The notes beneath the pieces are model-generated. The model was not told where the DNA came from. It did not search any database and saw only the letters and a program-made list of their open reading frames with translations. From Fistulifera solaris (lineage: Eukaryota), in assembly GCA_030295235.1 (NCBI GenBank), contig AP026152.1, forward strand, positions 62,001 to 126,000: a DNA stretch of 64,000 nt. Reading direction: 5' to 3'. A program made the translations under genes and the position numbers. Below are positions 28,908-61,875 of this stretch, in pieces (the stretch's first letter is position 1; each line of letters begins with the position of its first letter).

Positions 28908-29492
28908 ATGGCATCGGATAGTAAAAGAAACGTCATCCATTTGGATATTGGAGGAACGTTGTATAAGGTATCGCGCCAGACCCTTCAACAGCACAGAGCT
29001 TCTGTGCTCGCGCGCCTCATTTCGGATACCGGTCAAGGAGAGAATGCGGATGAACCCATTTTCATTGATCGCAACGGTCGTTTGTTTGAGTATGTTCTTG
29101 ATTACTTGAGAACGGAGCAGGTGTATTTACCTTTCTCTGTGAGCCGCGACGCAATAAAGGAAGAATTCGTGTTCTATGGGATCGGTGCGGATATGAGCAA
29201 AGTACATCGAACAGCTGATACTGCAGACTTCGAAATGTTCATTGAAAAAACTGACGCAATTCGAATTCAAAGATTCGTTCAACAAACAGCGACATTTGTT
29301 GAACGCGAGTTCTCAAAATATCCGACGATACGCAGCGTATCGATACCCCAGGCAGACTACGTGCAGCTTTCTGAACATGAAGACTTGCTTCGTGAGCAGC
29401 TACTCAAAAGAGGGCTGAGGCTTGTCGATCGTGATTGGAGGTTGGGCCATGCCTTACCTTATATCGTAGTCGAGAAAGTTTGCAGTTATTGA
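28908..29492 (+). CDS. BTB/POZ (KCTD/T1-type) protein, array copy 1
   Basis: IHLDIGGTLYKVSRQTL, PIFIDRNGRLFEYVLDYLR, EEFVFYGI; C-terminal LREQLLKRGL. Confidence 0.9.
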   Translation: MASDSKRNVIHLDIGGTLYKVSRQTLQQHRASVLARLISDTGQGENADEPIFIDRNGRLFEYVLDYLRTEQVYLPFSVSRDAIKEEFVFYGIGADMSKVHRTADTADFEMFIEKTDAIRIQRFVQQTATFVEREFSKYPTIRSVSIPQADYVQLSEHEDLLREQLLKRGLRLVDRDWRLGHALPYIVVEKVCSY

Positions 29493-30398
29493 TGTAATCA
29501 AGGGACAAACATTAGCGACGAAAGGCTAGGTGTGTCGATCCTGAGCATCATGCCGTTCACAGGTACACGCAATTCATATTAGTAGGTCTCGCATTCAAGT
29601 AGTTTTATGCAAATATCGCCCAGCAACTCATTTTCTCTTATTTGTTCGATGTAAACACTTGCTGTCTATGCCCAGACACCAGTCATCCGAGCTCAATATT
29701 TGACAATGATAGGCAAAGCAAGACTTGTTACGAAAAAATGAAACACGGACTGTCTCGTGCCTCATCGCATCGCCTCGCGCGAGCATATTATTTATTCATT
29801 CGTTTGCTTTTGTGCTTCGCCAGATATTCTTACATATAGGCCTTCCCTATATTTTTATACGAAGTATCTCATTCTTCTTTTACAGAAGTAACATGTAGAA
29901 CGCAAGCCAAATAAATTGTCGATGATTTACTATAGCAGCGATTCCGTCTTTTCTGCTACAGCCCGAACAAGTGCCGCGCTCGGACTACCAGACAAATGCT
30001 CCTACAAACAAACTACGGCTAAACCCCCCTCTCAAAGTGGCTCACCTTAAAATATACAAACGCGGCATGGCTATATCTGGCAAGAAAATCGTACCCTTTC
30101 GTATGTAATACCGCAACGTGCATGGGAACTACTATGTCTTAGAACACAAAACGATAGTTTTCGCACGTCGTCGTTTTGTTGCTAAGGGCGTAGAACACTA
30201 CGGCGCCTTGCACGGAGAGCCCCTTTTTCGCCATCGGTAATTCTCTCACCGGATATTGATATCGAGCATTGAAAAAGTGTGCTCCTTGGTGTTTGTCATG
30301 AAACAATAATCGCAGCGACGCAAGACGACGACCAACGATGCGAGATGCGAGAGCGAGCGAAACGCGAAACGCGAGAGACGCGCAATGAAAAGGATCGA

Positions 30399-30535
30399 GA
30401 TGACGTCAAGCGGCGCTTCGATCTTTGAAAAGTATGCAATAAAATGTAGTCAAATTCAGAAAGACTTCGCTTCTTCACGTCACTTTGTGCAACACTTTCT
30501 CAATTTTGACGTTTTGAGAAGAGACGCCACGTCAG
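30399..30535 (+). repeat. BTB-upstream palindromic element, copy A (divergent/partial)
   Basis: TGACGTCAAGCGG, CGTCACTTTGTG, CTTTCTCAATTTTGACGTTTT, ACGCCACGT. Confidence 0.7.
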
Positions 30536-30721
30536 ATAAAGACACCGACCACGTGAACAACGGAAACGTGCTCGGAAGCAAAACACGACACACACGAAGG
30601 AAACACGAATGAACAAGATACAAGATCTCGCAAGAAGCCAATGGATGCACTTGCCATCGACCTGCATCATAGTCCTTGTCGTTGTCAGTGACTTCTTCTT
30701 CTGATCATCTGGATCACGACA

Positions 30722-31420
30722 ATGGACAACAAAATCGTGCGTTTGAACGTCGGAGGCACGCGTTACGATGTCTCGCGCGATACACTGGCGCGCTGCGAAG
30801 GATCCATGCTGGCGAGCTTGATTTCGAAGCAATGGAAAGAAGGCAACTTGAATGAACCCATCTTCATTGATCGCAACGGACGTTTGTTTGAGTATATTCT
30901 GGACTATTTACGAACCAATGAGGTTCATTTGCCGCTTTCCGTCAACCGCACTGCGGTGGAAAAGGAGTTTGATTATTACGCCATTCCGGTCGATTGGACA
31001 CAAGTTCACTTACCGTCTTTGGATGAGTGGATGGAAGAAGTGGAATTGCGGCAAATGCAGCAATTTGTGACATTTGTGCGAGAAGAATTGTCGAAACTGC
31101 CCTACTGGGAAAAGAAAGTCAAAATACCCCCATCGGTGTATGTGCAGCTTTGTGGGCATGACCAATTATTGAGCCAGCTACTGAGCGATCGAGGAATGCA
31201 GTTGATTTCACGCGAATGGGAGGATGGTTCGCCCTGTATTCAGGTGAAAAAGACGGAGGACTGGAATGTCAAAAGGGGCGATAAGGTATTTCGCAGAGGA
31301 ACGAACGAAATCAAGCACAATTTTTTTAACATTATTCGTATGTGCATTGATCTGCAAGCTATTTTCGAGTGTACATCCGTGCCAGCATTTAGCTCACAAC
31401 TAGTTTCTTCGGTTTTGTAA
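30722..31420 (+). CDS. BTB/POZ protein, copy 2
   Basis: IVRLNVGGTRYDVSRDTL, EGSMLASLIS, IFIDRNGRLFEYILDYLR. Confidence 0.9.
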   Translation: MDNKIVRLNVGGTRYDVSRDTLARCEGSMLASLISKQWKEGNLNEPIFIDRNGRLFEYILDYLRTNEVHLPLSVNRTAVEKEFDYYAIPVDWTQVHLPSLDEWMEEVELRQMQQFVTFVREELSKLPYWEKKVKIPPSVYVQLCGHDQLLSQLLSDRGMQLISREWEDGSPCIQVKKTEDWNVKRGDKVFRRGTNEIKHNFFNIIRMCIDLQAIFECTSVPAFSSQLVSSVL

Positions 31421-31441
31421 GAAAGGAGTAGAGATTATGTT

Positions 31442-35239: not shown

Positions 35240-35849
35240 ATGGTGACGGATGACTCCGTGTGCAGCAAGATCGTCCAGTTGGATGTCGGTGGTACGCTTT
35301 TCAAGGTCTCTCGGGACACGCTGGAACGCTACAAAGACTCTATGCTGGCGAGTTTGATATCGAAGCATTGGAAAGAAGGGAACTCCGAGTTTCCGATCTT
35401 CATTGATCGCAGTGGTCGTTTGTTTGAACATGTCCTCGAGTATTTGCGAACAGACAAAGTCTATCTGCCTTCTTCAGTACGACGGCCCGCCATCGAAGAA
35501 GAGTTTGAGTTTTACGGAATTGATGTGGATATGAGTAGAGTCATCGAGAAAGACAGCGTTCAGTACACTCAGGAGCTCCTAGCCAAGATCGAAGCGGCAG
35601 AAAGAGAATTGAATGTGATGAAAGGCGAGCTCGTTGCAATTCGACTATCCCATTCGGCCGAGTCTGAATTCTTGAAAACAAGCCTGAAAACGGCAACGGT
35701 CGAAGTTGAAATTCCTCTTCATACGAAAGATTTCTCATTTGTTTCTTTTTTTTGTCCAAAGATTACGCGACAAGGGCCTGAAAGCAGTCGGGAGAACAAG
35801 GACAAAAGACGCGCATGTGATCGAAATAGGAAAACTAAACTCGAAATAA
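35240..35849 (+). CDS. BTB/POZ protein, copy 3 (frameshift near 35758)
   Basis: IVQLDVGGTLFKVSRDTL, IFIDRSGRLFEHVLEYLR; adding one A gives the family C-terminus SKRLRDKGL. Confidence 0.87.
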
Positions 35850-36608
35850 GAGAGCAGTATAGAACTTGATCACTTCTGTGGCCATCGACCCTAAAACCGA
35901 AAGAAAGAGACTTATGCCTCGCACAACACGTACGTGATCCTTTGACATCGACTGCGCTTCTCCGTGTATTCCTCCGAGCTCCTGAAAGCGAGATAGTTGA
36001 AGAGCACAAGGATCTACCACGACTACAACTGTTTGACAGAGGGTTATAATTGACTCACTCCACTACAACATCGACAGAAACACCTGTGAATTCAATGGCA
36101 GCCGAATCAGTCCTTAATCACACATTTATAGCACATTCATTTTGTTGTGTTGCAGACCGCCAACGCATGCATTCGCCGTCGTCGATGAGATGATGCACAC
36201 GCTTTGCCACACTTCTTTCGCGCTTATTCTGCACGCACAGAGCAGAAATCTGCTTTTCGCCTTCCCAGAGAGAACTCACAACATCGAATGTAGGACTCGA
36301 TTCTCAAATTTATCCTCTGCCAGTTGCTAGAGCAATCCGTAGAATAATGCGCGATAGTCATGCCCTTCAGAACATGTCATGAGCTTCATTGCCTGTCAAT
36401 GTGAGCCCAAAACCGACGAGGAGCACAAGCATGCTCCTTCCATTTATAAGACCGGATCAAATGTTCTACGAAGTAATTTCCAAACCAATAAATGTTTAAA
36501 AAAACAGATGATGCGACCGGTTCGCAAGCAGAGAACCCGAACATTATGCCAGCATCGCATTTTGCGTTGCACAAAATTGACTTGTCGGACAATCTTACGA
36601 TATGTAAA

Positions 36609-37249: not shown

Positions 37250-37792
37250 CTAGCTGCCTTGTACAAGTACTAAGATATGCACATGATCAATCCCCGGAAG
37301 TGATTGAAGACGAGGAGGATTGACCCAATGCAACATGTCTTGAACAAGTAGCTGTGATTGTAACTCCTTCTTTGCTTTCTGTATATCTTCCACCGTACAA
37401 TCAGCGCCTAACTTCCACAATATCCAATGTTGAACGGACTCCTCGAAACAGTAAGGAAAATCGTTGCGCACAAGAGCCGTTCGCGGTAATGTTGTGTTGT
37501 CTCCGTCGTTTCGTACGACGCGCTTGAGACCTTCCTGTAATTCAGAGGGCAAATTGAACTTTGTACACAGCACATAATCCAGCATCGACGCCCATTCTCT
37601 CAGTATAGCCCGCTTACTCAGCTCGTATTGACGCTGTTGTGAAGCACTTCGCGTCAGACGATCGAAATCGTGTTCGACGAGCACAATTTGTTGAATCTCT
37701 TGCCATTGTAAGGGCGTTTCGCAATAGCCGTATTTCAGCGTTGGTAACACGATCTCATCCGGGTTCACGTCACGAGACGTCAAACTCATCAT
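37250..37792 (-). CDS. DUF3605 (GIG1-like) protein
   Basis: LTRS..QQRQY, NDFPYCFEESVQHWILW, WVNPPRLQSLPGIDHVHIL. Confidence 0.8.
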   Translation of the reverse strand: MMSLTSRDVNPDEIVLPTLKYGYCETPLQWQEIQQIVLVEHDFDRLTRSASQQRQYELSKRAILREWASMLDYVLCTKFNLPSELQEGLKRVVRNDGDNTTLPRTALVRNDFPYCFEESVQHWILWKLGADCTVEDIQKAKKELQSQLLVQDMLHWVNPPRLQSLPGIDHVHILVLVQGS

Positions 37793-37904: not shown

Positions 37905-38175
37905 GATGATGACGTCAACCTGTACTTGGTCAATACCGGTTCATTGTTCTGTATCGTGCACAATGTAGGTTTACAGAGGAAGCCTGCGTCTCATCGCGTC
38001 AGTTTGTGTGAGGCTTTCTCGCCATGACGTTTTCCAAAGAAACGCTACGTAAATTTGCAGGAAAGTCTCCCAAAATGACGCGACACAAACGCAACGACGG
38101 ACACCATGAAGCGAACCCACGCGAGCGTGTCCCAAACGTGACAGACAAGCTTGTCATTGTGAGACAAGCTATACG
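37905..38175 (+). repeat. BTB-upstream palindromic element, copy B (main hairpin ~37985-38093)
   Basis: TGACGTCA, TGCGTCTCATCGCGTCAGTTTGTGTGA...TCTCCCAAAATGACGCG, TGACAGACAAGCTTGTCA. Confidence 0.9.
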
Positions 38176-38570
38176 TTCAATGTTTGTGTTAGGCGTTATA
38201 GGCGAAAGTAGCCCTGCATTGCAATTAGCCGGTGAATCATTATTACTCTCAACAATCTATCCTCGTCTCTTCTTGTTATGGAGGAAATGGTTCGATCTTC
38301 ATTGCTGACACCGTTTAATATAATTTCATGCTGATAGGCTGACGATTACCGTGGAGCTGCTATTTGAATGATGCGCCTAGTGTTTTGGATTGACTTTTGA
38401 TTACCGGAAACCGCTTGTCGCAAGATTGAAATCCGTTTTCGTGAAGCCGGTTTTCATTGAAAACCACGAATCAGATATGTTTCAAAATAAAAAGAAAGCT
38501 CGCAAAATGATGTGATACTTTCTCTCACAAAAAACACATCGTCTCATTCGCACCAAACACCGGCAAAAGG

Positions 38571-39039
38571 ATGAACAGCGACCCCAACATCAAGATGATT
38601 CGCTTGAATGTCGGAGGAACCCGCTACGATCTGTCGTTGGATACGCTGAGCCGAAGCGGAAACTCCCTTTGAAAACTATGATTCTCAGCAATGTGAATGC
38701 AGGAAAACCCTATGACCCCGTTTTTATTGACCGCAGCGGCCGTTTGTTCGAGTACGTCCTCGAATACATGCGGACAGGAAAAATTTACTTGCGACCCACC
38801 GAAAATAGCGCCGCTGTCAAGAACGAACTCGAGTTTTATGGATTCTTCGCCCCCAGCTTTCTATTTGTCGAGAATAAAAGGATTATGCCGAAGCAATCAC
38901 AGTGACCCACATTCTTCTTCGCTGTTTGACAGCCGGCGTGATGGTCAACTCAGTCCTTGTCGTCCTGGCTGCATTGGACGTTTGCGTTGGACTTGGAAAG
39001 TTGCGCGTGAGTCTCGACCTCTTCTCCATTCGAGCTTAA
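38571..39039 (+). pseudogene. BTB/POZ copy 5, two frameshifts (38668, ~38878; possibly assembly errors); corrected C-terminus is hydrophobic
   Basis: MIRLNVGGTRYDLS, VFIDRSGRLFEYVLEYMR, NELEFYG; alternate frame LTAGVMVNSVLVVLAALDVCVGLG. Confidence 0.75.
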
Positions 39040-39362: not shown

Positions 39363-39986
39363 ATGAGGGAAGACACCATGGATAGCAGCGTCCCGTTGGA
39401 TGTTGGAGGGACTTTTTATAGAGTAGCTCGAGATACCATCGAGCATCATGGAGACTCCATGTTGTCGAGGATAGTATCCACTCACTCAAACGAGAATGGC
39501 GCGGAGAACGCTCCAATCATCTTCATTGAAGGCAACGGTCGTTTGTTCGAATATGTTCTCGATTACATGCGCACTGGCAAAGTATATTTGCCGCCTTCTG
39601 TCACCAGAGCCGCCATGAAAAAGGAGTTTGACTCCTATGGAATCCCCTGCCGATATGAACAAAGTGGTTGAGAAACATGGCAATGAATACGCTCGTGATC
39701 TTGCGGCGAGGATTGAAGCGAAGCAAAAGAGCTGGACCTGTTGAGGGCAGAAGTATTTGCATTCCAGTTGTCGCATTTGCTCGAGTTCCAGGCCTTGGCA
39801 TCGCGCCACACAGGTCCACCGTTCTGCTTGTACGTAATGGATAATGATTACCCACCTTGTTGCAAAAATAACCAAGACTTGTTACGTCAGCAGCTGGCGA
39901 GCATCGGGTTGGACCTAGTGTCAAGCATGCAATCCGGCCAAAATCAGCATTGCATCACCGTCGAGTATGCAGATATGCAATCGTAA
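39363..39986 (+). pseudogene. BTB/POZ copy 6, frameshifts at ~39645 (C-run) and ~39727 (A-run)
   Basis: VPLDVGGTFYRVARDTI, IFIEGNGRLFEYVLDYMR; C-terminal LLRQQLASIGL in the downstream frame. Confidence 0.78.
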
Positions 39987-40617: not shown

Positions 40618-40886
40618 ATGATGACGTCAAGCGGTACTTGGTTAGTACCGCATCGCAATGCACTATAGGATGAAATGTTGGTTTACGAAGACAGCCTGCG
40701 TCTCATCGCGTCAGTTTGTGTGAAGCTTTCTCGCCATGACGTTTTGGGAAGAAACGCCACGTAAATTTGGCAGAAAAGTCTCCCAAAATGACGCGAAACA
40801 AACGCAACAACGGACACCATGAGCGACGCCACGCGAGCGTCTCCCAAACGTGACAGACATTTCTGTCATTGTGAGTCAAGCTACGT
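40618..40886 (+). repeat. BTB-upstream palindromic element, copy C (main hairpin 40697-40806)
   Basis: TGACGTCAA, GCGGTACT-TGGTT-AGTACCGC hairpin, long inverted repeat, TGACAGA-CATT-TCTGTCA hairpin. Confidence 0.92.
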
Positions 40887-41315
40887 GAATGTAATGGTAG
40901 TTGGAGCATGAATACTGATAGCTTGCGGTTACTCATGGTTAGAAAGATGAAGAAGCAGATTCATTCACTCGGCGACACAACAATCTATCATTTGTTTCTT
41001 CGTGCGATAGAGGAAACGGTTCGATCTGCACTGTTTGACATCGTTATATATAATTCATGCTGATGGGCTGACGACTACCGTCGAGCTGCTGGATGACAGA
41101 TGCACGGCAGTTTGCTTGGGTGCGCCTAATAGCTCATAATGCTTTTCGATTGTCGAAAACGGGTCGACGAAAGATTGAAATCCGTTTTCGTGAAGCCGAT
41201 TTCGTTGAAAACCACGAATCAGATCCGTTTCAAAGAGAAAAGGAAGCTCACAAAAGGGTCTGATCATCTCTCATAAAACAACAAGTCGTTTCATTCGCAC
41301 CAAACGTCGCTAAAG

Positions 41316-42202: not shown

Positions 42203-42505
42203 GATGACGTCAAGCGGAGGTAAATGATGACGTCAAGCGGTACTCAGTGATTACGTCACCTATCTTTTTGTATAAGAGAAACAGTAGTCGGGAGGGAAAG
42301 CCCGCGTCTCATCGCGTCAGTTTGTGTGACACTTTCTCATTTTCGACGTTTTCGAGGAAACGCCACGTAAAATGGAACAAAAAACAGTCGTCTCCCAAAA
42401 TGCCAAATGACGCGAAACAAACGCAACGACGGACACCATGAGACAATGCCACGCATCCGCACGTCGTGATGAGCATCATATAGCACGTGACAGCTTGTCA
42501 CTGTT
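42203..42505 (+). repeat. BTB-upstream palindromic element, copy D (duplicated TGACGTCAAGCGG)
   Basis: TGACGTCA at 42205 and 42228; GCGTCTCATCGCGTCAGTTTGTG...AAATGACGCGAAACAAACGC; TGACAGCTTGTCA. Confidence 0.9.
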
Positions 42506-42872: not shown

Positions 42873-43387
42873 ATGGCGATCAATGATACCCGAAAAATAG
42901 TTCGATTGAATGTTGGAGGAACGCAATACGATGTATCACGCGATACACTCGCACGATGCGAAGGTTCCATGTTGGCCAGTTTGGTATCGAAACAGTGGAA
43001 CGAAGGCAATACGAACAAACCCATCTTTATTGACCGCAATGGATTGTTGTTTCAATATGTTTTGGATTATTTGCGCAACAATCAATTGCATTTGCCGTCC
43101 TTTGTGAGTCGCGCCGCGATGGTCGATGAATATTTGATTTTTACGGAATCGAAGGGGATGTCCGCGTGCGCTCCGCCATCAAAGAATACGATCCGCATGC
43201 ACACATTCACGAGCTCCGGAACCAGGTGCGCTGTTGGCGGATCGCTCTGGCGGTTCTATCACTCTATCTGATAGAATGCCATCTAGTCTGGTTGAACGTC
43301 GTGGAGCGTTCTACTACCAGCGTGCTTTTGAATTTCATGATGATGTGTTTCGTGATCTATGTCATTAAGAATGGGTGGTTGCGTTGA
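42873..43387 (+). CDS. BTB/POZ protein, copy 8 (frameshift ~43132), C-terminus with hydrophobic segments
   Basis: IVRLNVGGTQYDVSRDTL, IFIDRNGLLFQYVLDYLR; downstream frame WRIALAVLSLYLI…VLLNFMMMCFVIYVI. Confidence 0.8.
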
Positions 43388-43855: not shown

Positions 43856-44386
43856 ATGATTTACACTGCTTCCGAAATGAAAATTGTTTACTTGGATGTC
43901 GGCGGCACGCTTTACAAAGTATCCCGTGATACGCTGGAACGTCACAAAGGCTCCATGCTGGCAACGTTGGTATCCAATCAATGGAAAGAAGGAACGACGA
44001 ACGAACCCATCTTTATCGATCGCAATGGTCGCTTGTTTGAGTATGTGCTCGATTACTTGCGTGCCAACAAATTGTATCTGCCCGCAACCGTCAACCTCAA
44101 CGCCATGATGGACGAGTTTGTTTATTATGGAGTCGATGTGGATATGAGCAATGTCATTGAATCGCATTACAGGGCTGAGCCCAGATTGATCAACCATCCG
44201 CATCTCGTGGAACGAGTGGATCTCGCTATTCGCTCGATCAACCGGATCGAAGCGAAGCTATTGCAAGTGGACTTGTCCCATCTAACCTCGAGAGTCTACT
44301 TTAACATTCTGTTTATGGAATTGGCCCGATCGGCTCTTTTGTCGGACTCAAAGCAATTGTTAAGGCTTGTAAAAATCAAGGTGTAA
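43856..44386 (+). CDS. BTB/POZ protein, copy 9
   Basis: IVYLDVGGTLYKVSRDTL, IFIDRNGRLFEYVLDYLR. Confidence 0.88.
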   Translation: MIYTASEMKIVYLDVGGTLYKVSRDTLERHKGSMLATLVSNQWKEGTTNEPIFIDRNGRLFEYVLDYLRANKLYLPATVNLNAMMDEFVYYGVDVDMSNVIESHYRAEPRLINHPHLVERVDLAIRSINRIEAKLLQVDLSHLTSRVYFNILFMELARSALLSDSKQLLRLVKIKV

Positions 44387-45555: not shown

Positions 45556-45913
45556 GAAGACTGCTATAGGTCAAGCGCTGGTACAAGAGTTATCAAGATG
45601 AAGAGGGCGACGCCGAAGCTAGGATAGCACGGTCTTCGTCATCGAATCATCGCAACGCATAGATCGTGAATTTATTCTCGATCCGTGATGGAGGGGATGT
45701 TTGCATGTATTCCATGGGGGACGAATATCATTATTTTCCGTATCTATATAGAGGGGAAGAAGTTACATCGCGCCTTTTACCTGATATTTACTAGATGAAG
45801 AAGTTCACCCTAGCTATAGAAGAACGCATTTGCTCTGGCATTGGTACTTTGGGTCGTGCTTCCTGCGTCATAATTTACGATCAATGAAACTTGGGAGCGA
45901 GGGAGAGCAATGA

Positions 45914-46318
45914 GTGATTGATCGATTGACGAAAGAGATTAAAGAACACAAGGGTGCTATCGAAGAAAAGGAGAGACAAGTAGCTGCGATCGTCGAGTCC
46001 TATCGTCTGACGCATCAATATGCAGAAACCGTCGCAAAGAAGAGCGGTAAAGGTTTTTCGACACACTCGTTCCCTGTGGAAGGAACTATTGACAAGAAAT
46101 TGCTGCACGAAATCTTGCTTTCCCGCGGACTCGATGCCTACTTCTATCAGAATGCGAAAGAGGGAGCACGGGTTATACTAGGTCCCATTGCAGAAGAGGA
46201 TAAAAGGATCTATGGCGAGAAACGCACCGGCTTTCGGTTTTCATTTGATGAAAGCAAAACGACACCTCTTGCTTCCACGGCCAGCAAACGTAGGTTCATG
46301 AGAGTTAAGAAGCGCTAA
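45914..46318 (+). pseudogene. 5'-truncated BTB-family remnant (coiled coil plus C-terminal domain only)
   Basis: IDRLTKEIKEHK…VAAIVESYRL…LLHEILLSRGL, close to 50070-50340; no BTB coding sequence upstream. Confidence 0.8.
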
Positions 46319-48070: not shown

Positions 48071-48754
48071 ATGAACACGCTCCAGCTACCGCCCATTTCG
48101 ACGAACACTCCGAAAGCATTCCGCAGCGATCTGATTCGCCTCAATGTCGGAGGAATTCGCTACGAAGTTTCTCGAAGCACAATGACACGCTACGAAGGGT
48201 TAGCCAGTCTGGCGGAGAGTTGGAACGATCAAAAATACAACAACGAGTTGTTTCTGTTCCGCAACGGGCAGTTGTTTGCGTACATCTTGGATTATGTGCG
48301 GTCGGGTAACGTTCATTTGCCTTCTTTCATCTCGATCAAGGTATTTAAGGAGGAATTGGAGTACTATAAAATTCCGGTGGACATGAGTAAGATTGTGGAG
48401 GAGAAAGATTACTTTACCGTGGACCGCCTGAACCGAGAAATCGAAGAACACCAGGCTGCAATGGAAGCTTTAGAGAAGCAACGAGTTGCTATTGTGGAGT
48501 CGTACCGTCTGGCATATCAGTTTGCGGAATTATGTGCAACAAACAGCAACAAACAGCCCAGTATTGTGGCTCCTTCCTTTCCGGTGAGAGGCAACATCAA
48601 TAAGAAAATGCTTCATGAATGCTTGCTTTCCCGAGGACTCGAGGCCTACGGATATTTGCAAGGACCAAAGGGTGCCACTATTTCGTTAGGAACTACTCCA
48701 GAAATTGTCAACGGAGCTCATGATCAACACAAATTGCCTTTTCTGATTTTTTGA
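48071..48754 (+). CDS. BTB/POZ protein, copy 11 (ESYR subfamily)
   Basis: LIRLNVGGIRYEVSRSTM, LFLFRNGQLFAYILDYVR, AIVESYRL, MLHECLLSRGL. Confidence 0.88.
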   Translation: MNTLQLPPISTNTPKAFRSDLIRLNVGGIRYEVSRSTMTRYEGLASLAESWNDQKYNNELFLFRNGQLFAYILDYVRSGNVHLPSFISIKVFKEELEYYKIPVDMSKIVEEKDYFTVDRLNREIEEHQAAMEALEKQRVAIVESYRLAYQFAELCATNSNKQPSIVAPSFPVRGNINKKMLHECLLSRGLEAYGYLQGPKGATISLGTTPEIVNGAHDQHKLPFLIF

Positions 48755-48874: not shown

Positions 48875-49006
48875 ATGCAGCTTTTTGTGCAGCAAGCTGT
48901 CGACACGGAGTTGCTCCGCATGTGCTTGTACTCTCGAAAGCTACAAGTTGTCTACTATAACGTGAAACCAGATGGAATGGTTGTTGCGCATGTGATTCCT
49001 GTTTGA
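48875..49006 (+). pseudogene. Isolated C-terminal remnant of a BTB paralog
   Basis: Translates MQLFVQQAVDTELLRMCLYSRKLQVVYYNVKPDGMVVAHV, which aligns to MQISVQQNVDREMLRECLMSRGLKVDNYKVKEDGTVIAHL of the 51065 gene. Confidence 0.75.
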
Positions 49007-49231: not shown

Positions 49232-49411
49232 GTGACGTCAAGCGGTACTAAAATGAAGGCAGTATACCACAAATAGTAGCTCAACCAAGAAGGCTTGCGT
49301 CGTTTCAAGTCATTTTGTGTGACGCTTTCTCGGTTTCGACGTTTTCGAGGAAACGCCACGTAAAATGGAAGAATTCTCCCAAAATGACACGCGAAAAACG
49401 AAAGACGTGAC
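49232..49411 (+). repeat. BTB-upstream palindromic element, copy E
   Basis: TGACGTCAAGCGGTACT; GTCATTTTG...CAAAATGAC perfect arm pair; CGACGTTTTCGAGGAAACGCCACGT. Confidence 0.88.
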
Positions 49412-49598
49412 AAAATGGAGGACAAGAGTGACGAAAATTGCGTCATGCACGCGATAACGACTCAATAAAACCGCAAGGGCCTCCTTCTCCTTTGCTTCAA
49501 TGATTGATTGCGTTGCTTTTGCTTGAATAATCATTTGATCCGTTGCTCAATCAAAATATGTATACGTTCGTTTATGGACCTTTTCGCCCGAATTGACT

Positions 49599-50431
49599 AT
49601 GGGGGATACTCGCATCAAGAAAACACGATTCTCGTTAGACGATAACCTCAATGAAGGCTTCGAAAACCTCACCGTCGAAGACGCTAAGGAAGAAACAAAT
49701 GTATATTCTTTCACATTCGGAAAGAAAACAGAAGAAAACAACGTCCCGCCTCCCACCAAGACTTTTCATCGCGACTTAGTTTGCTTGAATGTTGGGGGAC
49801 TCCGCTATGAAGTCTCTCGGACGACGATGACGCAATACGAAGGTTCCGTGCTAGACAGCTTGGCGAAGACGTGGAACGAAGAAAAGTTCAACAGCGAAAT
49901 CTTCGTGTTCCGCGACGGGAGTTTGTTTGCGTATGTTTTGGATTATCTGCGATCGGGTAAGGTATATTTGCCGTATTCGATTGCGCGGGCCGCTCTGCAA
50001 GAAGAATTCGATCACTTTCAGATTCCTGCGGACATGGAAAAGGTTTATGTGGAAAAGACTACTTCACCATTGATCGACTGACGAAAGAGATCAAAGAGCA
50101 CAAGGACGCGATTGAAGAGAAAGAGAGGACCGTCGCCGCCATCATTGAATCCTATCGTCTAGCACACAACCTTACGGCCTCTGTCATGAAGCATGGGTTT
50201 GATTGGTCCAAGGTGGTGACACCTAGCTTTACTGTTACGCCGGGCATCGACAAGAAACTGCTGCGCGATTGTTTGCTAGCGCAAGGAGTCGAAGTGTATG
50301 GTTACCGGATGGAAAATTTTGAGGCGCGCATTTCATTAGGACCCATTCAAGACGAAACTGGAGGAACTCCCTGCAATGGCGCTTACCGCAAGACGGCTAC
50401 TGGATCGCCATTTCGCTTCTTTGATCCATGA
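49599..50431 (+). CDS. BTB/POZ protein, copy 12 (ESYR subfamily; frameshift in an A-run ~50053)
   Basis: LVCLNVGGLRYEVSRTTM, IFVFRDGSLFAYVLDYLR; downstream frame AAIIESYRL…LLRDCLLAQGV. Confidence 0.83.
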
Positions 50432-51064: not shown

Positions 51065-51787
51065 ATGACATTGACCGCAAATGAAACGTTTCCTACGGAA
51101 CAAGCTCCTGAGATTCCTTCGACTACAGCAAGTGAGAGCCAGTCGAATGATACGCCTGATGTCACGCCGACAACTCCCCGCAGTCCGCGAGAAATCGTCC
51201 GCTTGAACGTGGGAGGCACGCGATACGAAGCATCCCGCAACACTCTGTTGCGGTTTGAGGATTCGATGCTGGCCAGTCTCATTTCCGGCAAATGGAAAGA
51301 AGGAGAAGGCGATGAAGAAATCTTTATCGATCGCGATGGACGTCGTTTCGGGTATATTTTGGAGTATTTGCGCTCCGACCGTGTGCATTTACCGCATTTG
51401 TCGGCCCGGTCTGCTTTGATGGAAGAGTTTGAGTACTTTGGGATTGATGCCGATGAGAGCAAGATTCTGGTCCAGCACGACTTTATGTGTCTCGATCAAC
51501 TCAAGAAAGAAATCATGCTTCATCAAGCCGCTATTGCTGAGAAGGAACGGGAAGTGGCGGCCATTCTGGAATCCTATCGTATGGCCAAGGAATTTTCCGA
51601 GTACGTCAAATCATGGGGATTGAATGTTATGATGCAGATATCGGTGCAGCAGAATGTCGACCGAGAGATGCTTCGTGAATGCTTAATGTCGCGGGGACTT
51701 AAGGTGGACAACTACAAAGTGAAAGAAGATGGAACCGTCATTGCCCATCTTGTTTCGCTGGGGATGTCTGGTCACGCCCGAAAATAA
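51065..51787 (+). CDS. BTB/POZ protein, copy 13 (ESYR subfamily)
   Basis: IVRLNVGGTRYEASRNTL, IFIDRDGRRFGYILEYLR, AILESYRM, MLRECLMSRGL. Confidence 0.9.
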   Translation: MTLTANETFPTEQAPEIPSTTASESQSNDTPDVTPTTPRSPREIVRLNVGGTRYEASRNTLLRFEDSMLASLISGKWKEGEGDEEIFIDRDGRRFGYILEYLRSDRVHLPHLSARSALMEEFEYFGIDADESKILVQHDFMCLDQLKKEIMLHQAAIAEKEREVAAILESYRMAKEFSEYVKSWGLNVMMQISVQQNVDREMLRECLMSRGLKVDNYKVKEDGTVIAHLVSLGMSGHARK

Positions 51788-53274: not shown

Positions 53275-53880
53275 ATAACGAGTAGCAATAACGAAGGCAA
53301 GATCGTTCGACTGAATGTCGGAGGTACACGATACGACGTCTCGCGCGATACGATGGAGCGCTGCGAAGGGTCCATGCTGGCAAGCTTGATATCGAAAGAT
53401 TGGAAAGAACGTAACAGCCCGGAACCTATCTTGATTGACTGCAGCGGGAGATTGTTTGAGTATGTTCTCGAGTATCTGAGAACAAATGAGGTCTACTTGC
53501 CCACTCTTGTGGACCGAACGGCTTTGGAAAAAGAGTTTTCGTTTTATGGCATCGAAGTGGATATGAAGAACGTCCATGAAAGAAACGGTCGAAAATATAT
53601 TGAAGAAATAGCCCCGAGAATCGCATCCGCTCAAAAAGACCTGGACTTGTTAACCGTTGAACGCCTCGCCATTGAAACAGCTGCTTTCGTCGAACTCAAA
53701 TACGTGCAATCAAGACCATACCAAATCAGTTTGCCTGATGAAGTTGATGATTCTGCGCTGCTTCAGAAGTACCCCGAATTTTTCCGTGAACGCTTACTTG
53801 ACAGAGGATTGTTGTTTCAGTCAATCGGAGTGGACAGGAATAAGTCTTGGTATATTAAAGTTCAAAGCGTAGATACTTGA
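53275..53880 (+). CDS. BTB/POZ protein, copy 15; ATA at the expected start position
   Basis: IVRLNVGGTRYDVSRDTM, ILIDCSGRLFEYVLEYLR, FRERLLDRGL; no in-frame ATG before the BTB. Confidence 0.82.
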   Translation: MTSSNNEGKIVRLNVGGTRYDVSRDTMERCEGSMLASLISKDWKERNSPEPILIDCSGRLFEYVLEYLRTNEVYLPTLVDRTALEKEFSFYGIEVDMKNVHERNGRKYIEEIAPRIASAQKDLDLLTVERLAIETAAFVELKYVQSRPYQISLPDEVDDSALLQKYPEFFRERLLDRGLLFQSIGVDRNKSWYIKVQSVDT

Positions 53881-54236: not shown

Positions 54237-54497
54237 AAGCGGCACTCAGTGATTACGTCACTCACGCTTTGTATCCAAGGAAAAGTAGTCTGGAGGGAAA
54301 GTCTGCGTCTCATCGCGTCAGTTTGTGGGACACTTTCTCATTTTCGACGTTTTCGAGGAAACGCCACGTGAAAAATGAAGCAAAACTCTCTCAAAATGAC
54401 GCAAAACAAACGAATAAACTCGGACACCATGAGAATTGCCACGCGACACGCCAGCTCTATCCGCATGTGACAAGTGACAAATACCTTGTCATTGTGA
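54237..54497 (+). repeat. BTB-upstream palindromic element, copy F
   Basis: AAGCGG, TGCGTCTCATCGCGTCAGTTTGTG...CAAAATGACGC, TGACAA-ATACC-TTGTCA; closest to copy D. Confidence 0.9.
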
Positions 54498-55171: not shown

Positions 55172-55795
55172 ATGACGACGGAAGAAACGAAACCCAAAGT
55201 TGTTCAGCTGGACGTTGGAGGCACGCTTTATAAAGTATCACGGGACACGCTCGAGCGTTGCGAGGGATCGATGCTGGCCAGTTTGATCTCGGATCAATGG
55301 AAGGAAGGAAATACTGACGAACCGATCTTCATTGATCGCAACGGTCGTTTGTTTGAGCATGTACTGGACTATTTGCGCGCCAGCAAAGTGTATTTGCCTT
55401 CGACAGTCAACATCGAGGCGGTGAAAGAGGAGTTTGAGTTTTATGGGATTGACGCCGATATGAGTGAAGTGCACGAAAAGTACGGTCACAAGTATCTACA
55501 CGAGCTTAATGAAAGGATTCGTGTCCAAGAAGAGAGCTTGTACGCATTAAAGGCGGAAGCCCATGCCATTCAAGCGTCCATGATGGTCGAGCATGAATTC
55601 TTCAAAGAGCATGAGACTCCCTACATTCCGGTCCCCGAGGAGTATCGACCAAAGCGTCACACGCGGTGCATTGATTTGCCGGAAGAGTATAGACCCTTTG
55701 ATAAAGAAACGCTGCGCACCTGCTTGCAACAGAGAGGTTTCAAAATGAATCGAGCCGATCGAGACTACGTTTCCGTCGAGGACATGGAAAGCTAG
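55172..55795 (+). CDS. BTB/POZ protein, copy 16
   Basis: VVQLDVGGTLYKVSRDTL, IFIDRNGRLFEHVLDYLR, LRTCLQQRGF. Confidence 0.9.
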   Translation: MTTEETKPKVVQLDVGGTLYKVSRDTLERCEGSMLASLISDQWKEGNTDEPIFIDRNGRLFEHVLDYLRASKVYLPSTVNIEAVKEEFEFYGIDADMSEVHEKYGHKYLHELNERIRVQEESLYALKAEAHAIQASMMVEHEFFKEHETPYIPVPEEYRPKRHTRCIDLPEEYRPFDKETLRTCLQQRGFKMNRADRDYVSVEDMES

Positions 55796-56228: not shown

Positions 56229-56945
56229 ATGGCGCGACGAAAAAACAAATCTATTGCGAAAAGGGCGGCGAAGAAGAACGGTAATAGCCCTCCTCAGACT
56301 TCTCAGAGGGAAGGCGGTAGTCCTCAAGGTGATGAACAAAAACCAACCGTTCGATTGAATGTAGGAGGTATGCGCTATGAAGTAGCTCGAGATACCTTGA
56401 TGTTTTACGAAGATTCGATGCTCGCGAGTCTGGTATCCGGCAGATGGAAGGAAGGCAATGGTGAAGATGAAATCTTCATCGATCGCGACGGACGTCGATT
56501 TGGATTTCTTCTGAATTATCTACGTTCGGATCGAGTTTATCTGTCAGAGTCTTCAGATCAAGCGGCTCTCGAGGATGAATTCGAGTACTTCGGAATCGAT
56601 GCAGATATGAGCAAAGGTTTCATTGAAGAACGACTTTGTGTCTGTGAAAGAGCTCACTCAAGAGATTGAAGAGCACGAAGAATTCATCAAGGAGAAAAAG
56701 AAGAAAATTGCTGCAATAAAGGAATCTTATCGCTTGGCTAGTGACTTTACAAGTCGCACCGACAGCCAAGGTTTATATGTGCGACATAATGTCGGCGTTG
56801 CTATTGACAAAGAAATGCTCCGAGAATGCTTCTTTCTCGAGGATTGTTCGTAGTTTCGTACAATGATGAACAGGCTAAGCAGACAGTCGACATCTGTTTT
56901 ATTTCTTTGAAACACAAATACGCCAAGAAAGCTGGATCTAACTGA
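56229..56945 (+). CDS. BTB/POZ protein, copy 17 (ESYR subfamily; frameshifts ~56615 and ~56833)
   Basis: VRLNVGGMRYEVARDTL, IFIDRDGRRFGFLLNYLR, AAIKESYRL, MLREC..SRGL. Confidence 0.82.
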
Positions 56946-57304: not shown

Positions 57305-57400
57305 CCCGTACCAGGTACCGGTACCGGTACCGCACCGGTACTACGTAGTAGCTAGTACCAGGTAGCCCCTGCTGAATGTTGAATGCTGAATGCTGAGAAG
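57305..57400. repeat. Low-complexity GTACCG/GTAC and GAATGCT slippage repeats
   Basis: CCGTACCAGGTACCGGTACCGGTACCGCACCGGTACTACGTAGTAG...CTGAATGTTGAATGCTGAATGCTGA. Confidence 0.75.
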
Positions 57401-57404
57401 CTGC

Positions 57405-57590
57405 TGACGTCATTCACAATCACGCGGTACTCAAAGTGCGGATGCGTTTCTCACTTTTGACGTATTTCGAAGAAAAGCCACGTGAAATGGGGCGGAAAGT
57501 CTCCCAAAATGACACGAAAGTAAAGAAACCATGCGAGCTCTTGTCCGTCTGTGACGACACTTCTTGTCATTGCAATAAGACAAGCTACGT
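57405..57590 (+). repeat. BTB-upstream palindromic element, copy G (internally deleted)
   Basis: TGACGTCA, GCGGTACT, TTTCTCACTTTTGACGT...GCCACGTG...AAAGTCTCCCAAAATGAC, TGACGA..TTGTCATTG, GACAAGCTACG. Confidence 0.82.
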
Positions 57591-58055: not shown

Positions 58056-58703
58056 ATGCCACGACGAAAGAAACAAGCGTCTTTGGACGGAAAGACTGAT
58101 AACATAAACACTGGTATCGTCCGTTTGAACGTGGGTGGCACTCGTTATGAGGCAGCACGCTTAATGCGATTTGAGGGATCCATGCTCTCTAATCTCATTT
58201 CGGGCAAATGGAAAGAAGGAAATGGACAAAACGAGATCTTTCTGGATCGCGATGGCAAGTTGTTTGCTTACATCTTGGCGTATTTGCGTTGCAATCGAGT
58301 CTATGTGCCCGACCTCTCCGTTCAATCAGCGCTCCGAGATGAGTTTCAGTACTTTGGTATTGATGCCGACATGAGTAAAGTGTCTGTCACGGACGACTTT
58401 GTGACGATCAACGAGCTCAGCAAAGAGATTAAAAAGTCGGAAAAGGCCAACCTTCAGAAAAAGAAGAAGATTGCTGCCATCAAAGAATCGTATCGTTTGG
58501 TCGGTGAGTTTTCGGTCCTGGCGGAGACGTTAGGTCTGTACTTGCGACATGATATTGACGATAATGTGGACAAGAAGCTACTCCGCGCGTGTCTGCTGTC
58601 GCGGGGACTTCACGTCGTTAGCTACAACACTGATTCGATGCCACATACCGTCGATCTCTGTGTCATTGGATTGAAGGACAAGTTCGATAAAAGTGGCGAG
58701 TAG
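58056..58703 (+). CDS. BTB/POZ protein, copy 18 (ESYR subfamily)
   Basis: IVRLNVGGTRYEAA, IFLDRDGKLFAYILAYLR, AAIKESYRL, LLRACLLSRGL. Confidence 0.89.
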   Translation: MPRRKKQASLDGKTDNINTGIVRLNVGGTRYEAARLMRFEGSMLSNLISGKWKEGNGQNEIFLDRDGKLFAYILAYLRCNRVYVPDLSVQSALRDEFQYFGIDADMSKVSVTDDFVTINELSKEIKKSEKANLQKKKKIAAIKESYRLVGEFSVLAETLGLYLRHDIDDNVDKKLLRACLLSRGLHVVSYNTDSMPHTVDLCVIGLKDKFDKSGE

Positions 58704-58938: not shown

Positions 58939-59160
58939 AAGCGGTACTGCACTGTCTTGTCAGATGTACTAAATTTCGGAAAGCCTGCGCTGTTTCTCGT
59001 CACTTTGTGTGAGGCTTTCTCGCCATGACGTTTTGGGAAGAAACGCCACGTAAATTTGGCAGAAAAGTCTCCCAAAATGACGCGAAACAAACGCAACAAC
59101 GGACACCATGAGCAAAACCACATACCAGGTAATACAAGTTAATGCCACGCGAGCGTCTCT
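58939..59160 (+). repeat. BTB-upstream palindromic element, copy H
   Basis: AAGCGGTACT; 59014-59113 identical to 40725-40824. Confidence 0.92.
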
Positions 59161-59577
59161 CCAACCTCCCTGACAATAAGAGCTTCAAATGTAAATGTGT
59201 GTGAAGATGAGAGATTCGTCTGTCAAAACGAACGAACCGAGCAGAAAAGGAGAAACGCTGCAATGAAACAATTCACTCAGTCGCTCATGCTGTGCGTGTG
59301 GCTATAGACTAGAGAGGGCAGCTGGATAAAGAGATTTCTACCTGTAACGGCCAAGAAATTAGATGCTGAGACCGGTACTCGCAAGGACCGACTCGGCGGT
59401 TTCGGCGACTGCACCTCTGGGGAGCGCACGATGGAAACGGTTGTGATACATTTTGTCACGTGGACGGATTTCGACTGGAATCACAAAACGAATAAATATC
59501 GAAGAATTGAATTAAGGAACGAAAGGCGTTTGTTGGATGATTCACAAAAGACGCTTGCTTGTCACGGAGCTGGAAGA

Positions 59578-60195
59578 ATGACAATGACGGAAACTGAAAA
59601 CTATCGTATTTCGGTGGATGTCGGAGGAACCATGTATGAAATATCTCGGGACACGCTGGCAAGTTGTGAAGGTTCTAAACTGACGAGCATGATCATGGAG
59701 CAATGGAAAGACACAAACCTCGACGGTTATATTTTGATTGACCGCGACGGTAAGATGTTTGAGTATGTGCTTGATTACTTGCAAACGCATACGGTCTTTC
59801 TTCCGCGTGAGGTGAGCCGGCTTGCTTTAGAGAGAGAGTTCGAGTACTATGGAATTGAAGCGGACATGACCAATGTGCATGACTTGTATGGATTTGAGCA
59901 TCTTCGTATGATCAAAGAGGAGATTGGGGTACAAGAAGCTCACCTTGACGTGTTGAAGAGCGAAGCCATGGCCATTCAGCTATCCATGTTCACCGAACTC
60001 GAGTATCTGAGAAATATACCGAGCAAAACCGAATGTGTGAACTTTGACATCCCCAAAGAGTACAGCAGCTACAACAAGGCGCTTTTCAAAGAGTGCTTGG
60101 CTGCCAGAGGATTGGTGTATGTTCGAGGAACCGTCAACGGCAAGTCTCTAAACGTCACCAAACAACTCGATGACGATACTGATACAAAAGAGTAG
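59578..60195 (+). CDS. BTB/POZ protein, copy 19
   Basis: ISVDVGGTMYEISRDTL, ILIDRDGKMFEYVLDYL, FKECLAARGL. Confidence 0.89.
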   Translation: MTMTETENYRISVDVGGTMYEISRDTLASCEGSKLTSMIMEQWKDTNLDGYILIDRDGKMFEYVLDYLQTHTVFLPREVSRLALEREFEYYGIEADMTNVHDLYGFEHLRMIKEEIGVQEAHLDVLKSEAMAIQLSMFTELEYLRNIPSKTECVNFDIPKEYSSYNKALFKECLAARGLVYVRGTVNGKSLNVTKQLDDDTDTKE

Positions 60196-60501
60196 AGCGA
60201 TGCATAAGTAGCGTTAGACGAGAATGAACTGTAATCGTTCTAACGAAGAATTCTTTTTATCTTTCAACCTCTGTCATTTTTAGTTCACTTTGAAGCTGCA
60301 CAAAGATGAAGAACCATCATTCATTGAGCGTACGCTATGTTGAATCTGTAAAGAAACCAAAGTGATTTGTTGATGATCCCACGTATGGATGTCTAGATTT
60401 TATCTTTAGTCATTCACTTGAAGCTAGAATACTATAAGAAGATGCATTTAGCGCTGACGAACCTTTCAACACTACTTGACTATTCATTCTCCCACAAACA
60501 T

Positions 60502-60902
60502 TACTATAGCACCCGAGTGTAGATTACTTTTTCACGACTGCATTTCAGTCACGAATAATAGTTCTGGGTTTTGGGAGCCTGACTTCACCTAGACTAACCT
60601 CTGTTTGTTCTGCTATTTTGAAACACTGAATCCGTCATTATTACACTTCAATGCTTTCAGAAGTATGAGCGGTGAGCCTTCTGAAGTTTTATGCGTCCTT
60701 TGACCTCTCGGCAATCCTTCCAGATCGAGTATAGCCCCTCGCCGTTACCTGGTAAAAATAAAATGTAAGGATAAAGCGTATAGTTTCAATTTAATCATTC
60801 AGATTAGTTATAGTTATAAAGCCTGACAAGTTTCCGAATCTTATAAATGTTTTGATTTTACTACGGAGCATAGATTTTACCATGACTGGATTCAGTCATG
60901 AA
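60502..60902 (+). repeat. Two copies (60502 full, ~60860 partial) of CTATAG/hairpin dispersed element
   Basis: TACTATAGCACCCGAGTGT...CACGACTGCATTTCAGTCACGA; CATGACTGGATTCAGTCATG. Confidence 0.7.
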
Positions 60903-61280
60903 TGAGCATCAATAAAATAACATAATAAAACATAAAAACACCATATCATCTCCGAACCATTTTGACCATTCATTCTTTCTTATTATGCATTCAAATTTTG
61001 CATGGTTTACAGCTTTTTTAAGTGTAGATGATAGTGCGATTTCTGGGGGAAACGTTTTTGGGCGTTGGAATGCACCTTTCCTCCATGATGCAAAACACCA
61101 CGCTATACTATGTACGCATGTTTGGTTGATGACAATCCACGGATGGTTTTCGACACGAGGAGGAGTGAGTCAGTCGTCCACACAATTGCTGATGAATGAA
61201 TATTCAGTCTGAAAGAAGGGTTTCACATTGTCTCGCACAATTTATTTTTTCTAAGACTGCCGGAAGGGATTTACGGCAGA

Positions 61281-61875
61281 ATGACGACTGAAGCAAAAAT
61301 CGATGGCAAGATCGTGCGTTTGAACGTCGGAGGAACACGATACGACGTATCTCGCGATACTCTTGAGCGCTTTCAAGACTCCATGCTGGCAAGCTTGGTG
61401 TCAAAGCATTGGAAGGAAGGCAACTCGAATGAACCCATCCATCGATCGCAATGGTCGCTTGTTCGAGTATGTTCTGGATTACTTGCGCACTAGCGAAATC
61501 CATTTGCCCTCTTTTGTGAGCCCGGCTGCTTTGGAAAAGGAATTGGAGTTCTACGGCCTTTATGATGTTGATATGAGTAAAGTGATCGGAAAGAACAGGG
61601 TCGAGTACGGCATTTCGGTTCGAGAGAAAGCGGAGACGTTGGCCCTGGAAGTACGGGCGATTCGATTGGCAGCTCTGGCGGAATCTGAGTTCTGGCAACA
61701 CCGATTTCCGCCAGAATCGCTTTCGGTATCGATATGCTCTGAAGATTATAAAGAGCTTGTTCGGCGTGAGGACTTACTACACGAACGCTTACTTGACAAG
61801 GGATTGCAACTTGTTTCGATGAACAAAGAGAAAAATTGTTTGTATAATTTTGTATTCAAGGTGGCAAATGCTTAA
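61281..61875 (+). CDS. BTB/POZ protein, copy 20 (frameshift ~61440)
   Basis: IVRLNVGGTRYDVSRDTL, then IDRNGRLFEYVLDYLR…LHERLLDKGL in the next frame. Confidence 0.85.

Follow-up and report, generated by a model that had tools for sequence, protein, structure and literature searches.

Among described proteins, the closest counterparts of the genes treated here are the animal KCTDs (e.g. KCTD5, KCTD7, SHKBP1, and KCTD16), which combine an N-terminal BTB domain of the T1 type with a short non-channel C-terminus in a total of about 200-300 amino acids (aa), and the T1 domains of voltage-gated potassium (Kv) channels of the Shaw and Shal types, which share the BTB_2 fold. About two thirds of the animal KCTDs serve Cullin-3 (Cul3). 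Expanded, fast-evolving families of adaptors for Cul3 or SCF (Skp1-Cullin-F-box) ligases are formed by the MATH-BTB proteins of nematodes and grasses and by the F-box proteins of plants; in these families a conserved docking or oligomerising domain is joined to a divergent partner part, the genes stand in tandem and decayed copies occur. Here we describe a tandem array of 20 KCTD-like BTB loci in the diatom Fistulifera solaris, located in a stretch of 64,000 nucleotides (nt) of contig AP026152.1 (assembly GCA_030295235.1, positions 62,001 to 126,000) that is referred to as the window and numbered from its first letter. The genome of this pennate diatom is allopolyploid: its 42 pairs of homoeologous chromosomes are divided between an H and an L subgenome, and its GC content is about 45% (PMC5935921). 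In the window the GC content is 0.41-0.49, and named database matches (e.g. FisN_14Hu037) place the window on chromosome 14 of the H subgenome.

Hardly any work exists on what BTB/KCTD-like proteins do in diatoms, and a literature search for diatom BTB and KCTD proteins retrieved no study of this family, only remarks on copy number and one remark on expression. A contraction of KCTD-type families is reported for an Antarctic Nitzschia (PMC13149256), and in Seminavis robusta a bias towards sexual stages is reported for a BTB/POZ family that is not shown to be of the T1 type (PMC7335047). Among the supplement rows listed for S. robusta, T1-type BTB families comprise 4, 3, and 1 genes and show neither expansion nor an enrichment in tandem copies (PMC7335047); together with the Nitzschia report, these counts indicate that BTB copy number varies among diatoms. 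Tandem BTB families are common. What is new here is that KCTD-like BTB proteins carry a C-terminal module not described before and that their genes form a tandem array of unusual length and age, an arrangement of 20 loci that sets these genes apart from the animal KCTDs.

A tblastn search with a single member as query (open reading frame (ORF) 55172-55795) returned 22 high-scoring segment pairs, which correspond to 20 BTB loci between positions 28908 and 61875, all on the plus strand, and none in positions 1-28000. The same 20 loci were obtained when a BTB profile made from the window copies was run against all stop-to-stop pieces of both strands, and a profile of the C-terminal tail revealed two additional tail-only remnants (Table 1). 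An earlier inspection of the DNA letters without database searches, referred to below as the sequence-only reading, had counted 20 BTB ORFs and two remnants, all on the plus strand and without apparent introns, and the loci, the remnants and their orientation were right. Canonical members are indeed uninterrupted single ORFs of about 190-280 aa, but as the window reads only 10 of the 20 loci are intact ORFs with an ATG, a BTB and a tail (those starting at 28908, 30722, 36492, 44893, 48071, 51065, 52096, 55172, 58056, and 59431); the other 10 carry frameshifts, have lost the start codon or are without the canonical tail, and two unrelated genes, one on each strand, interrupt the array.

All 19 ORFs that were scanned against Pfam passed the gathering score for BTB_2 (PF02214, the T1/KCTD type) with 31-70 bits, compared to a cut-off of 21.4 bits; for the 20th locus, the frameshifted g38592 (loci are designated by g and a number), which lies outside these 19 ORFs, the evidence comes from the profile and from tblastn. 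In profile comparisons the BTB part, and this part only, matched KCTD16, SHKBP1, KCTD15, KCTD7, KCTD1, KCTD5, and the T1 domains of Kv3 and Kv4 channels with E-values of 1e-16 to 1e-9, the animal KCTDs at 1e-16 to 1e-12 and the T1 domains of Kv3.1 and Kv4.x at 1e-12 to 1e-9. An AlphaFold2 (AF2) model of g55172, obtained with an alignment of 70 sequences, reached a mean predicted local distance difference test (pLDDT) value of 89.2, and its BTB (residues 10-102) superposed on the BTB domains of KCTD16 and KCTD17 and on the T1 domain of Kv3.1 with target-normalised template modelling (TM) scores of 0.71-0.77 (about 0.75) and root-mean-square deviations of 2.3-3.1 Å. When the whole-protein model was compared with the folds in the PDB, matches were obtained via the BTB only. 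The T1/KCTD-type identity proposed in the sequence-only reading is thereby borne out by domain family, profile matches and fold. Only BTB_2 and BTB_3, and no ion-transport domain, were detected by Pfam in the window BTB proteins (171-280 aa), and a search for longer or fused forms among proteins of 421-2000 aa gave none at E<=1e-10, which is weak evidence. The proteins are soluble; as in KCTD adaptors, a T1-type BTB stands at the N-terminus and a channel domain is missing. Unlike Kv channels, they have no transmembrane or pore domain and end after about 200 aa. In public records family members appear as hypothetical proteins or as potassium voltage-gated channel Shal/Shaw-related (e.g. P0041, P0048, and P0067; public relatives are designated by P and a number); as the proteins have a T1-like BTB only and no channel domain, these channel names are wrong and misleading.

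Behind the BTB, canonical members continue with a helix some 40 residues long, which is followed by a module of roughly 45 residues with a beta-alpha-beta-beta order. The tails of 14 window genes align end to end and contain an L..L..RG(L/F/M) motif in which the glycine is invariant in 14 of 14 sequences, so that the motif noticed in the sequence-only reading is present, whereas the accompanying statement that the divergent tails usually keep the motif alone does not stand. In the model of g55172 the tail forms a long helix (residues 106-144), a strand (164-168), a second helix (178-187), and two further strands (190-195 and 199-204), and a model of the tail alone, based on the 14 window sequences, showed the same elements with a pLDDT of 90.5. 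Structure modelling of the tails, which the sequence-only reading had proposed as a check, returned a folded unit both in the full protein and in isolation; the tails are not unstructured. The LxxRG(L/F/M) segment coincides in the model with the end of a short helix, a turn and the start of the next strand, suggesting that it belongs to the structural core of the module and is not obviously a binding site. A prediction of a complex of four tail copies, in which the supplied alignment was not used, gave a score of 0.05 and a mark of 0.32, values that speak neither for nor against a self-association of the tails.

Searches for relatives of the tail gave few matches. Pfam found nothing in the tails of the 19 ORFs, the tail profile run against all PDB sequences gave a best E-value of 0.33, which is noise, and comparison of the tail model with the PDB folds gave no match at E<=1e-3, with KCTD5 appearing at E 1.8 and a probability of 0.06; a look-alike search of the ESM Atlas with the tail stayed under the noise level (score 0.75). 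An exhaustive search of 1.84 billion cluster representatives with the tail profile yielded 37 matches at E<=1e-3, two of which, a Tudor protein and a repeat protein, are low-complexity false positives. Apart from short fragments, the tail in the other matches is preceded by at least about 100 N-terminal residues, and BTB_2 was present in 12 of the 20 newly found matches that were scanned. The small number of matches and the position of the tail behind a BTB indicate that the tail is a lineage-restricted companion of this BTB. As modelled, it is a confidently predicted folded unit without a relative among solved structures or Pfam families, and it differs from the C-terminal domains of the animal KCTDs, among which no relative was detectable.

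In order to follow the divergence of the two parts, identities were calculated for the 55 pairs formed by 11 full-length paralogs. The BTB domains are on average 52% identical (32-74%) and the tails 23% (14-37%). By the Nei-Gojobori method the proportion of synonymous differences (pS) among the same paralogs was at least 0.6 in 54 of the 55 pairs, with a mean of 0.77; this saturation means that there are no young duplicates among them and that dN/dS between paralogs is uninformative. For the relationships to genes outside the window, a maximum-likelihood tree was calculated from 82 rows, of which 18 are window genes and 64 are relatives of at least 150 aa; rows identical to window genes, two double-BTB models, the distant P0079-P0089 and P0038, and the proteins first retrieved with the tail profile (P0090-P0109) were left out. 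Because the tree was obtained by a quick search, only pairs with values of 96-100 in the Shimodaira-Hasegawa-like approximate likelihood-ratio test (SH-aLRT) were relied on. Such values were obtained for g28908/P0036, g44893/P0023, g55172/P0001, g58056/P0044, g51065/P0039+P0041, g49599/P0060, g59578/P0019, and g41316/P0078, i.e. eight window genes, including the non-canonical g41316, pair with a relative from outside the window and not with an array neighbour. The sole pair of sisters within the window, g53275 and g35240, has a support of 91 and long branches, and the label "window" changes 11 times on the tree, compared with a mean of 11.9 after shuffling.

Second copies of several window genes, with 75-97% identity, exist on other contigs (P0036, P0023, P0001, P0044, P0039/P0041, P0060, and P0091) and are probably homeologs or close orthologs. 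For seven nearest-relative pairs, one per window gene, 618 of 702 BTB positions (88.0%) and 683 of 748 tail positions (91.3%) are identical, and in four of the seven pairs the tail is more conserved than the BTB. Between g44893 and P0023 the identity is 86% for the BTB and 94% for the tail. The fastest part in these pairs is the N-terminal extension, with 50-86% identity where it exceeds 2 aa. Three further relatives of g55172, with an overall identity of 80-89%, have tails that are 81-90% identical. Tails that are specific for each paralog and nevertheless conserved within pairs point to an old differentiation followed by constraint rather than to ongoing diversification. The description of the tails as hypervariable in the sequence-only reading holds between old paralogs and fails between homeologs or orthologs, and the divergence of old paralogs should not be taken as hypervariability. 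The dN/dS ratio, which it had recommended for a comparison of BTB and tail, is uninformative between paralogs because of saturation; the protein identities of the nearest-relative pairs argue against a faster tail. The only younger duplication in the window concerns the units of g38592 and g41316 and involves positions 37949-38650 and 40661-41395, about 0.7 kb with 76-83% nt identity that includes non-coding DNA, and one of its copies (g38592) is decaying.

These data bear on the idea that the array is a rapidly diversifying arms-race repertoire, for example for the defence against intracellular viruses or bacteria, resembling the MATH-BTB and F-box expansions. The much stronger divergence of tails than of BTBs between paralogs, the presence of decayed copies and the differential loss between subgenomes fit such a repertoire, as do the restriction of the family to a narrow lineage and the small or contracted families of S. 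robusta and Nitzschia. However, young duplicates are missing, the window genes are not mutual nearest relatives, in the seven homeolog or ortholog pairs taken together conservation of the tails is no lower than that of the BTBs, further one-to-one relatives with conserved tails exist, and nothing in these data links the family to infection. In having neither recent duplicates nor a sign of ongoing tail divergence, the array also departs from the expanded Cul3/SCF adaptor families to which its conserved domain, divergent partner part, tandem order, and decayed copies otherwise liken it. We consider an arms race very unlikely, and the sequence data argue that the array is not a currently diversifying repertoire, contrary to what had been proposed; the pair results come close to the stable one-to-one orthology that the sequence-only reading itself had named as incompatible with its view.

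The family is larger than the array, as seen from members without a close copy in the window (P0052, P0061, P0047, P0012, P0017, P0058, and P0074, none of which exceeds 61% identity to a window gene). Other members bear the tags FisN_14Hu062, FisN_14Lh051, and FisN_UnNu008, and locus-tag numbering suggests that the family probably continues just past the window. Two of the relatives, P0005 and P0018, contain two BTB_2 units each, and the start of P0018 falls within a BTB; both give the impression of gene models in which adjacent members of the array were joined, and not of true double-BTB proteins.

Single-base frameshifts occur in BTB genes at about 35745, 39648, 39725, 50054, 56617, and 56826, and four of the six are clearly within homopolymer runs. 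The public proteins P0090 (277 aa) and P0101 (202 aa, intact) are letter-identical to the read-through of g49599 on either side of its break and to all three segments of g39363, respectively, which indicates that these breaks are probably assembly errors and not pseudogenisation; the homeolog-like P0060 of g49599 is intact as well. The break of g35240 in a run of eight T (T8) is probably a homopolymer error too, and most of the six breaks are expected to be assembly errors. P0106 equals the middle piece of g56229. Introns were considered as the cause of the split ORFs of g39363, g49599, g56229, and g61281 and rejected, because homology runs without gaps across the breaks in a shifted frame and leaves no room for an intron. 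In g61281 a different situation was found: P0093, which is 97% identical to the ORF g61429 within this locus, has the same odd truncated start, so that the deletion at about 61440 is real and shared by two diverged copies, and an ORF of half a BTB plus tail persists. The ATA at 53275 is probably real as well. Loss also differs by subgenome, as P0060, P0064, and P0067 are intact while their window relatives are split or 5'-deleted (P0064 and P0067 being the intact relatives of the longer tail-only remnant), and the relative P0024 is truncated while g36609 itself is intact. These comparisons show a slow loss of copies from the array that has taken different courses in the two subgenomes.

Another reading is genomic drift, by which the array would be a largely neutral product of unequal crossing-over, with most of its members redundant or in decay and individually without function; for the F-box adaptor families of plants, genomic drift is a published proposal (PMC3030570). 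The 10 loci that are not intact canonical genes, the two tail-only remnants and the differing losses of the subgenomes fit such a drift. But intact public counterparts, identical letter for letter, exist for at least two of the apparently broken genes, and in a third the break falls in the T8 run, so that decay is overstated by the window as it reads; moreover, paralogs with saturated synonymous sites still possess open frames and a foldable tail, and the tails are 91% conserved in the nearest-relative pairs. Drift as the main explanation is improbable in our view.

Taken together, the array is probably an old, slowly turning-over panel of differentiated oligomeric adaptors belonging to a lineage-restricted T1/KCTD BTB subfamily. 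Family, fold, architecture, age, and conservation pattern, which make up the descriptive part of this statement, are observed, and we are very confident of them. For the mechanism, it is suggested that the BTB would homo-oligomerise to a tetramer or pentamer, as in KCTD proteins and Kv T1 domains (PMC5664961, PMC11047111, PMC10856315), that the long helix would then present a ring or bundle of paralog-specific C-terminal modules, and that each module would bind a partner of its own; a BTB oligomer carrying paralog-specific modules would amount to a fixed panel of differentiated oligomeric adaptors. The most plausible output would be the transfer of the partner to a Cul3 ligase, although this step taken by itself is doubtful, if quite possible. 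The substrate-recognition repertoire of the sequence-only reading survives in so far as differentiated tails fit partner-specific adaptors; its diversifying and defensive part does not.

Instead of serving Cul3, the proteins might act as Cul3-independent oligomeric scaffolds or auxiliary subunits, for which KCTD8, KCTD12, and KCTD16 (receptors), KCTD1 and KCTD15 (transcription factors), and T1-like channel modulators are models. The best matches include KCTD16, KCTD15, and KCTD1, which do not bind Cul3, and the T1 domains of Kv3 and Kv4, while equally strong matches were obtained with the Cul3 binders SHKBP1, KCTD7, KCTD5, KCTD17, and BACURD; according to PMC10856315, binders and non-binders are not separable by overall BTB sequence similarity. 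The alpha2-beta3 loop, through which, together with the alpha4-alpha5 hairpin, KCTD adaptors contact Cul3, has the lowest confidence within the modelled BTB of g55172 (block pLDDT 74), and one paralog, g52096, carries an insert in this loop, both of which would suit a scaffold. The same holds for g41316, whose C-terminus contains the hydrophobic stretch IGILKAVGWCYVAWGLTLG with a Kyte-Doolittle value of 1.35 over 19 aa, which may be a membrane anchor, and which is 98% identical to P0078. On the other hand, neither a sequence pointer to a channel or receptor partner nor a relative of the tail among the KCTD C-terminal domains was found. A role as Cul3-independent scaffolds appears rather unlikely, and we continue to favour the panel of adaptors described above.

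Several observations weigh against this preferred reading. As the window reads, 10 of the 20 loci fall short of an intact canonical gene, and much of the array could be dispensable. The higher conservation of the tails in the seven pairs is marginal (Fisher p 0.046), and three of the pairs favour the BTB by at most 4 points. The purifying selection that appears to act on the tails is deduced from protein identity and not from dN/dS, and it is through their family membership that oligomerisation, Cul3 binding, and partner binding are attributed to these proteins. Finally, Cul3 is not bound by the animal KCTD1, 8, 12, 15, and 16, and KCTD16 is the best sequence match here.

Upstream of part of the genes a shared element was detected. 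An nhmmer search found eight copies of an ACGT-rich element of 150-200 nt, all on the plus strand and at distances of 111-724 nt upstream of BTB starts; the remainder of the window contains no significant copy. The element precedes 8 of the 20 loci (g30722, g38592, g41316, g42873, g49599, g55172, g58056, and g59578) and contains the cores TGACGT, TGACGC, and CACGTA/G; TGACG occurs 14 times per kb in the copies versus 2.6 elsewhere, and CACGT 9.8 times per kb versus 1.5. A general repeat or transposon was considered and rejected, as no copies lie in the window beyond the array and all are co-oriented upstream of BTB genes. RNA folding of one element gave z = -0.95 and no sign of a structured RNA. 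Two copies of the element are 92% identical although the genes behind them share about 50% protein identity, which mobile origin or gene conversion would explain. TGACGT is described as a target of diatom aureochrome basic leucine zipper (bZIP) modules and occurs in work on low-CO2-inducible genes (PMC4937327, PMC11142338). The simplest reading of the element, a lead and not a result, is that it may be a shared cis-regulatory module through which part of the panel might be co-regulated. Combining these features, the helix with its beta-alpha-beta-beta module could be an undescribed partner-recognition domain of a few raphid diatoms, found in a battery of co-regulated Cul3 adaptors with fixed substrates that would be switched via the TGACGT/CACGT module by bZIP factors, with the light- or CO2/cAMP-responsive diatom factors as candidates; this extended proposal is speculative and unlikely to hold in full.

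The locus thus represents a compact, well-defined set of paralogs whose C-terminal module is new and modelled with confidence, together with a candidate shared promoter element, and the allopolyploid genome supplies built-in homeologous controls. If its members are Cul3 adaptors, it would offer a tractable entry to substrate-specific protein turnover in an oil-producing diatom, for which a protocol with CRISPR ribonucleoproteins (RNP) is described (PMC13276009).

Table 1. Features of the BTB array and of neighbouring genes, in window positions.
Feature	Positions	Strand	Evidence or remark
g28908, 194 aa, intact BTB + helix + C-terminal module	28908..29492	+	BTB_2 7e-17; tail profile 7e-27
g30722, 232-aa ORF, intact	30722..31420	+	Pfam, tail profile
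g35240, tail frame shifts at T8 run ~35745	35240..35869	+	tail motif continues in other frame to ~35846
g36609, intact, likely start 36609, 195 aa	36492..37196	+	Pfam, profiles
g38592, decayed BTB copy, frameshift within BTB, without tail	38574..38905	+	tblastn and BTB profile only (match 38574-38845)
g39363, frame 0 to +1 to 0	39363..39986	+	shifts at C run ~39648 and A run ~39725 (75 nt on)
g41316, 171 aa, non-canonical C-terminus with hydrophobic segment	41316..41831	+	BTB_2; no tail-profile match
g42873, BTB-only ORF, 132 aa, BTB end degenerate, without tail	42873..43271	+	Pfam, profiles
g43856, 176 aa, helix retained, terminal module degenerate	43856..44386	+	Pfam, profiles
g44893, 220 aa, intact, = P0021	44893..45555	+	Pfam, tail profile
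Tail-only remnant, BTB part deleted	45887..46315	+	76% identical to P0067 residues 89-231
g48071, 227 aa, intact	48071..48754	+	Pfam, profiles
Short tail-like remnant	48884..48985	+	tail profile E 4.5e-5, profile positions 63-95
g49599, 1-nt shift, base missing in A run ~50054	49599..50431	+	profiles, read-through
g51065, 240 aa, intact	51065..51787	+	Pfam, profiles
g52096, 215 aa, intact, 18-aa insert in alpha2-beta3 loop	52096..52743	+	Pfam, profiles
g53275, open frame, ATA at the paralogs' ATG position	53275..53880	+	profiles
g55172, 207 aa, intact, modelled member	55172..55795	+	Pfam, AF2 model
g56229, two frameshifts, +1 ~56617 and -1 ~56826 (net zero)	56229..56942	+	profiles
g58056, 215 aa, intact, = P0042; relative P0044 (FisN_14Lh051)	58056..58703	+	Pfam
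g59578, intact, likely start 59578, 205 aa	59431..60195	+	Pfam, profiles
g61281, 2-nt deletion within IFIDRNG (most conserved motif), tail intact	61281..61875	+	tblastn, profiles
Element copy 1	30430..30611	+	nhmmer 6.7e-31; 111 nt before g30722
Element copy 2	37943..38128	+	nhmmer
Element copy 3	40656..40840	+	nhmmer
Element copy 4	42262..42460	+	nhmmer
Element copy 5	49257..49423	+	nhmmer
Element copy 6	54265..54448	+	nhmmer
Element copy 7	57400..57542	+	nhmmer
Element copy 8	58944..59129	+	nhmmer
U32 peptidase gene inside array	32435-34860	+	3 ORF pieces, Pfam
DUF3605 gene inside array	37250-37792	-	Pfam
Leucine-rich-repeat (LRR) protein gene directly after array	62054-63016	-	Pfam
Cation-efflux gene, left flank, 2 pieces as introns would split	13650-15043	-	

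For some of the loci in Table 1 the public gene models provide further details. The nearest relative of g28908, P0036, is 97% identical to it. The protein encoded by g30722 is 99.5% identical over 186 aa to P0033 (FisN_14Hu037, 187 aa), a public model that ends with a 3' intron, and the public model of g43856, P0026, is spliced at its 3' end. In g53275 the first ATG is located at 53353, and a start at this position would drop the first 26 residues of the BTB.

To its left, the array is flanked by ordinary genes in either orientation (GrpE, ribosomal protein S5, cation-efflux, sulfotransferase, and others), and some genes of the window are found in intron-like pieces (U32 in three, cation-efflux in two), in agreement with the mixed orientation and the introns that the first inspection had ascribed to the surroundings. 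No match was obtained with Rfam at the gathering score in the whole window. The U32 (collagenase-type) peptidase gene inside the array has a DUF3656 middle part, and its ORF pieces are separated by gaps of about 115 nt, as would be the case with two introns. Peptidase family U32 is mainly bacterial, and the origin of this gene in a diatom might merit a look.

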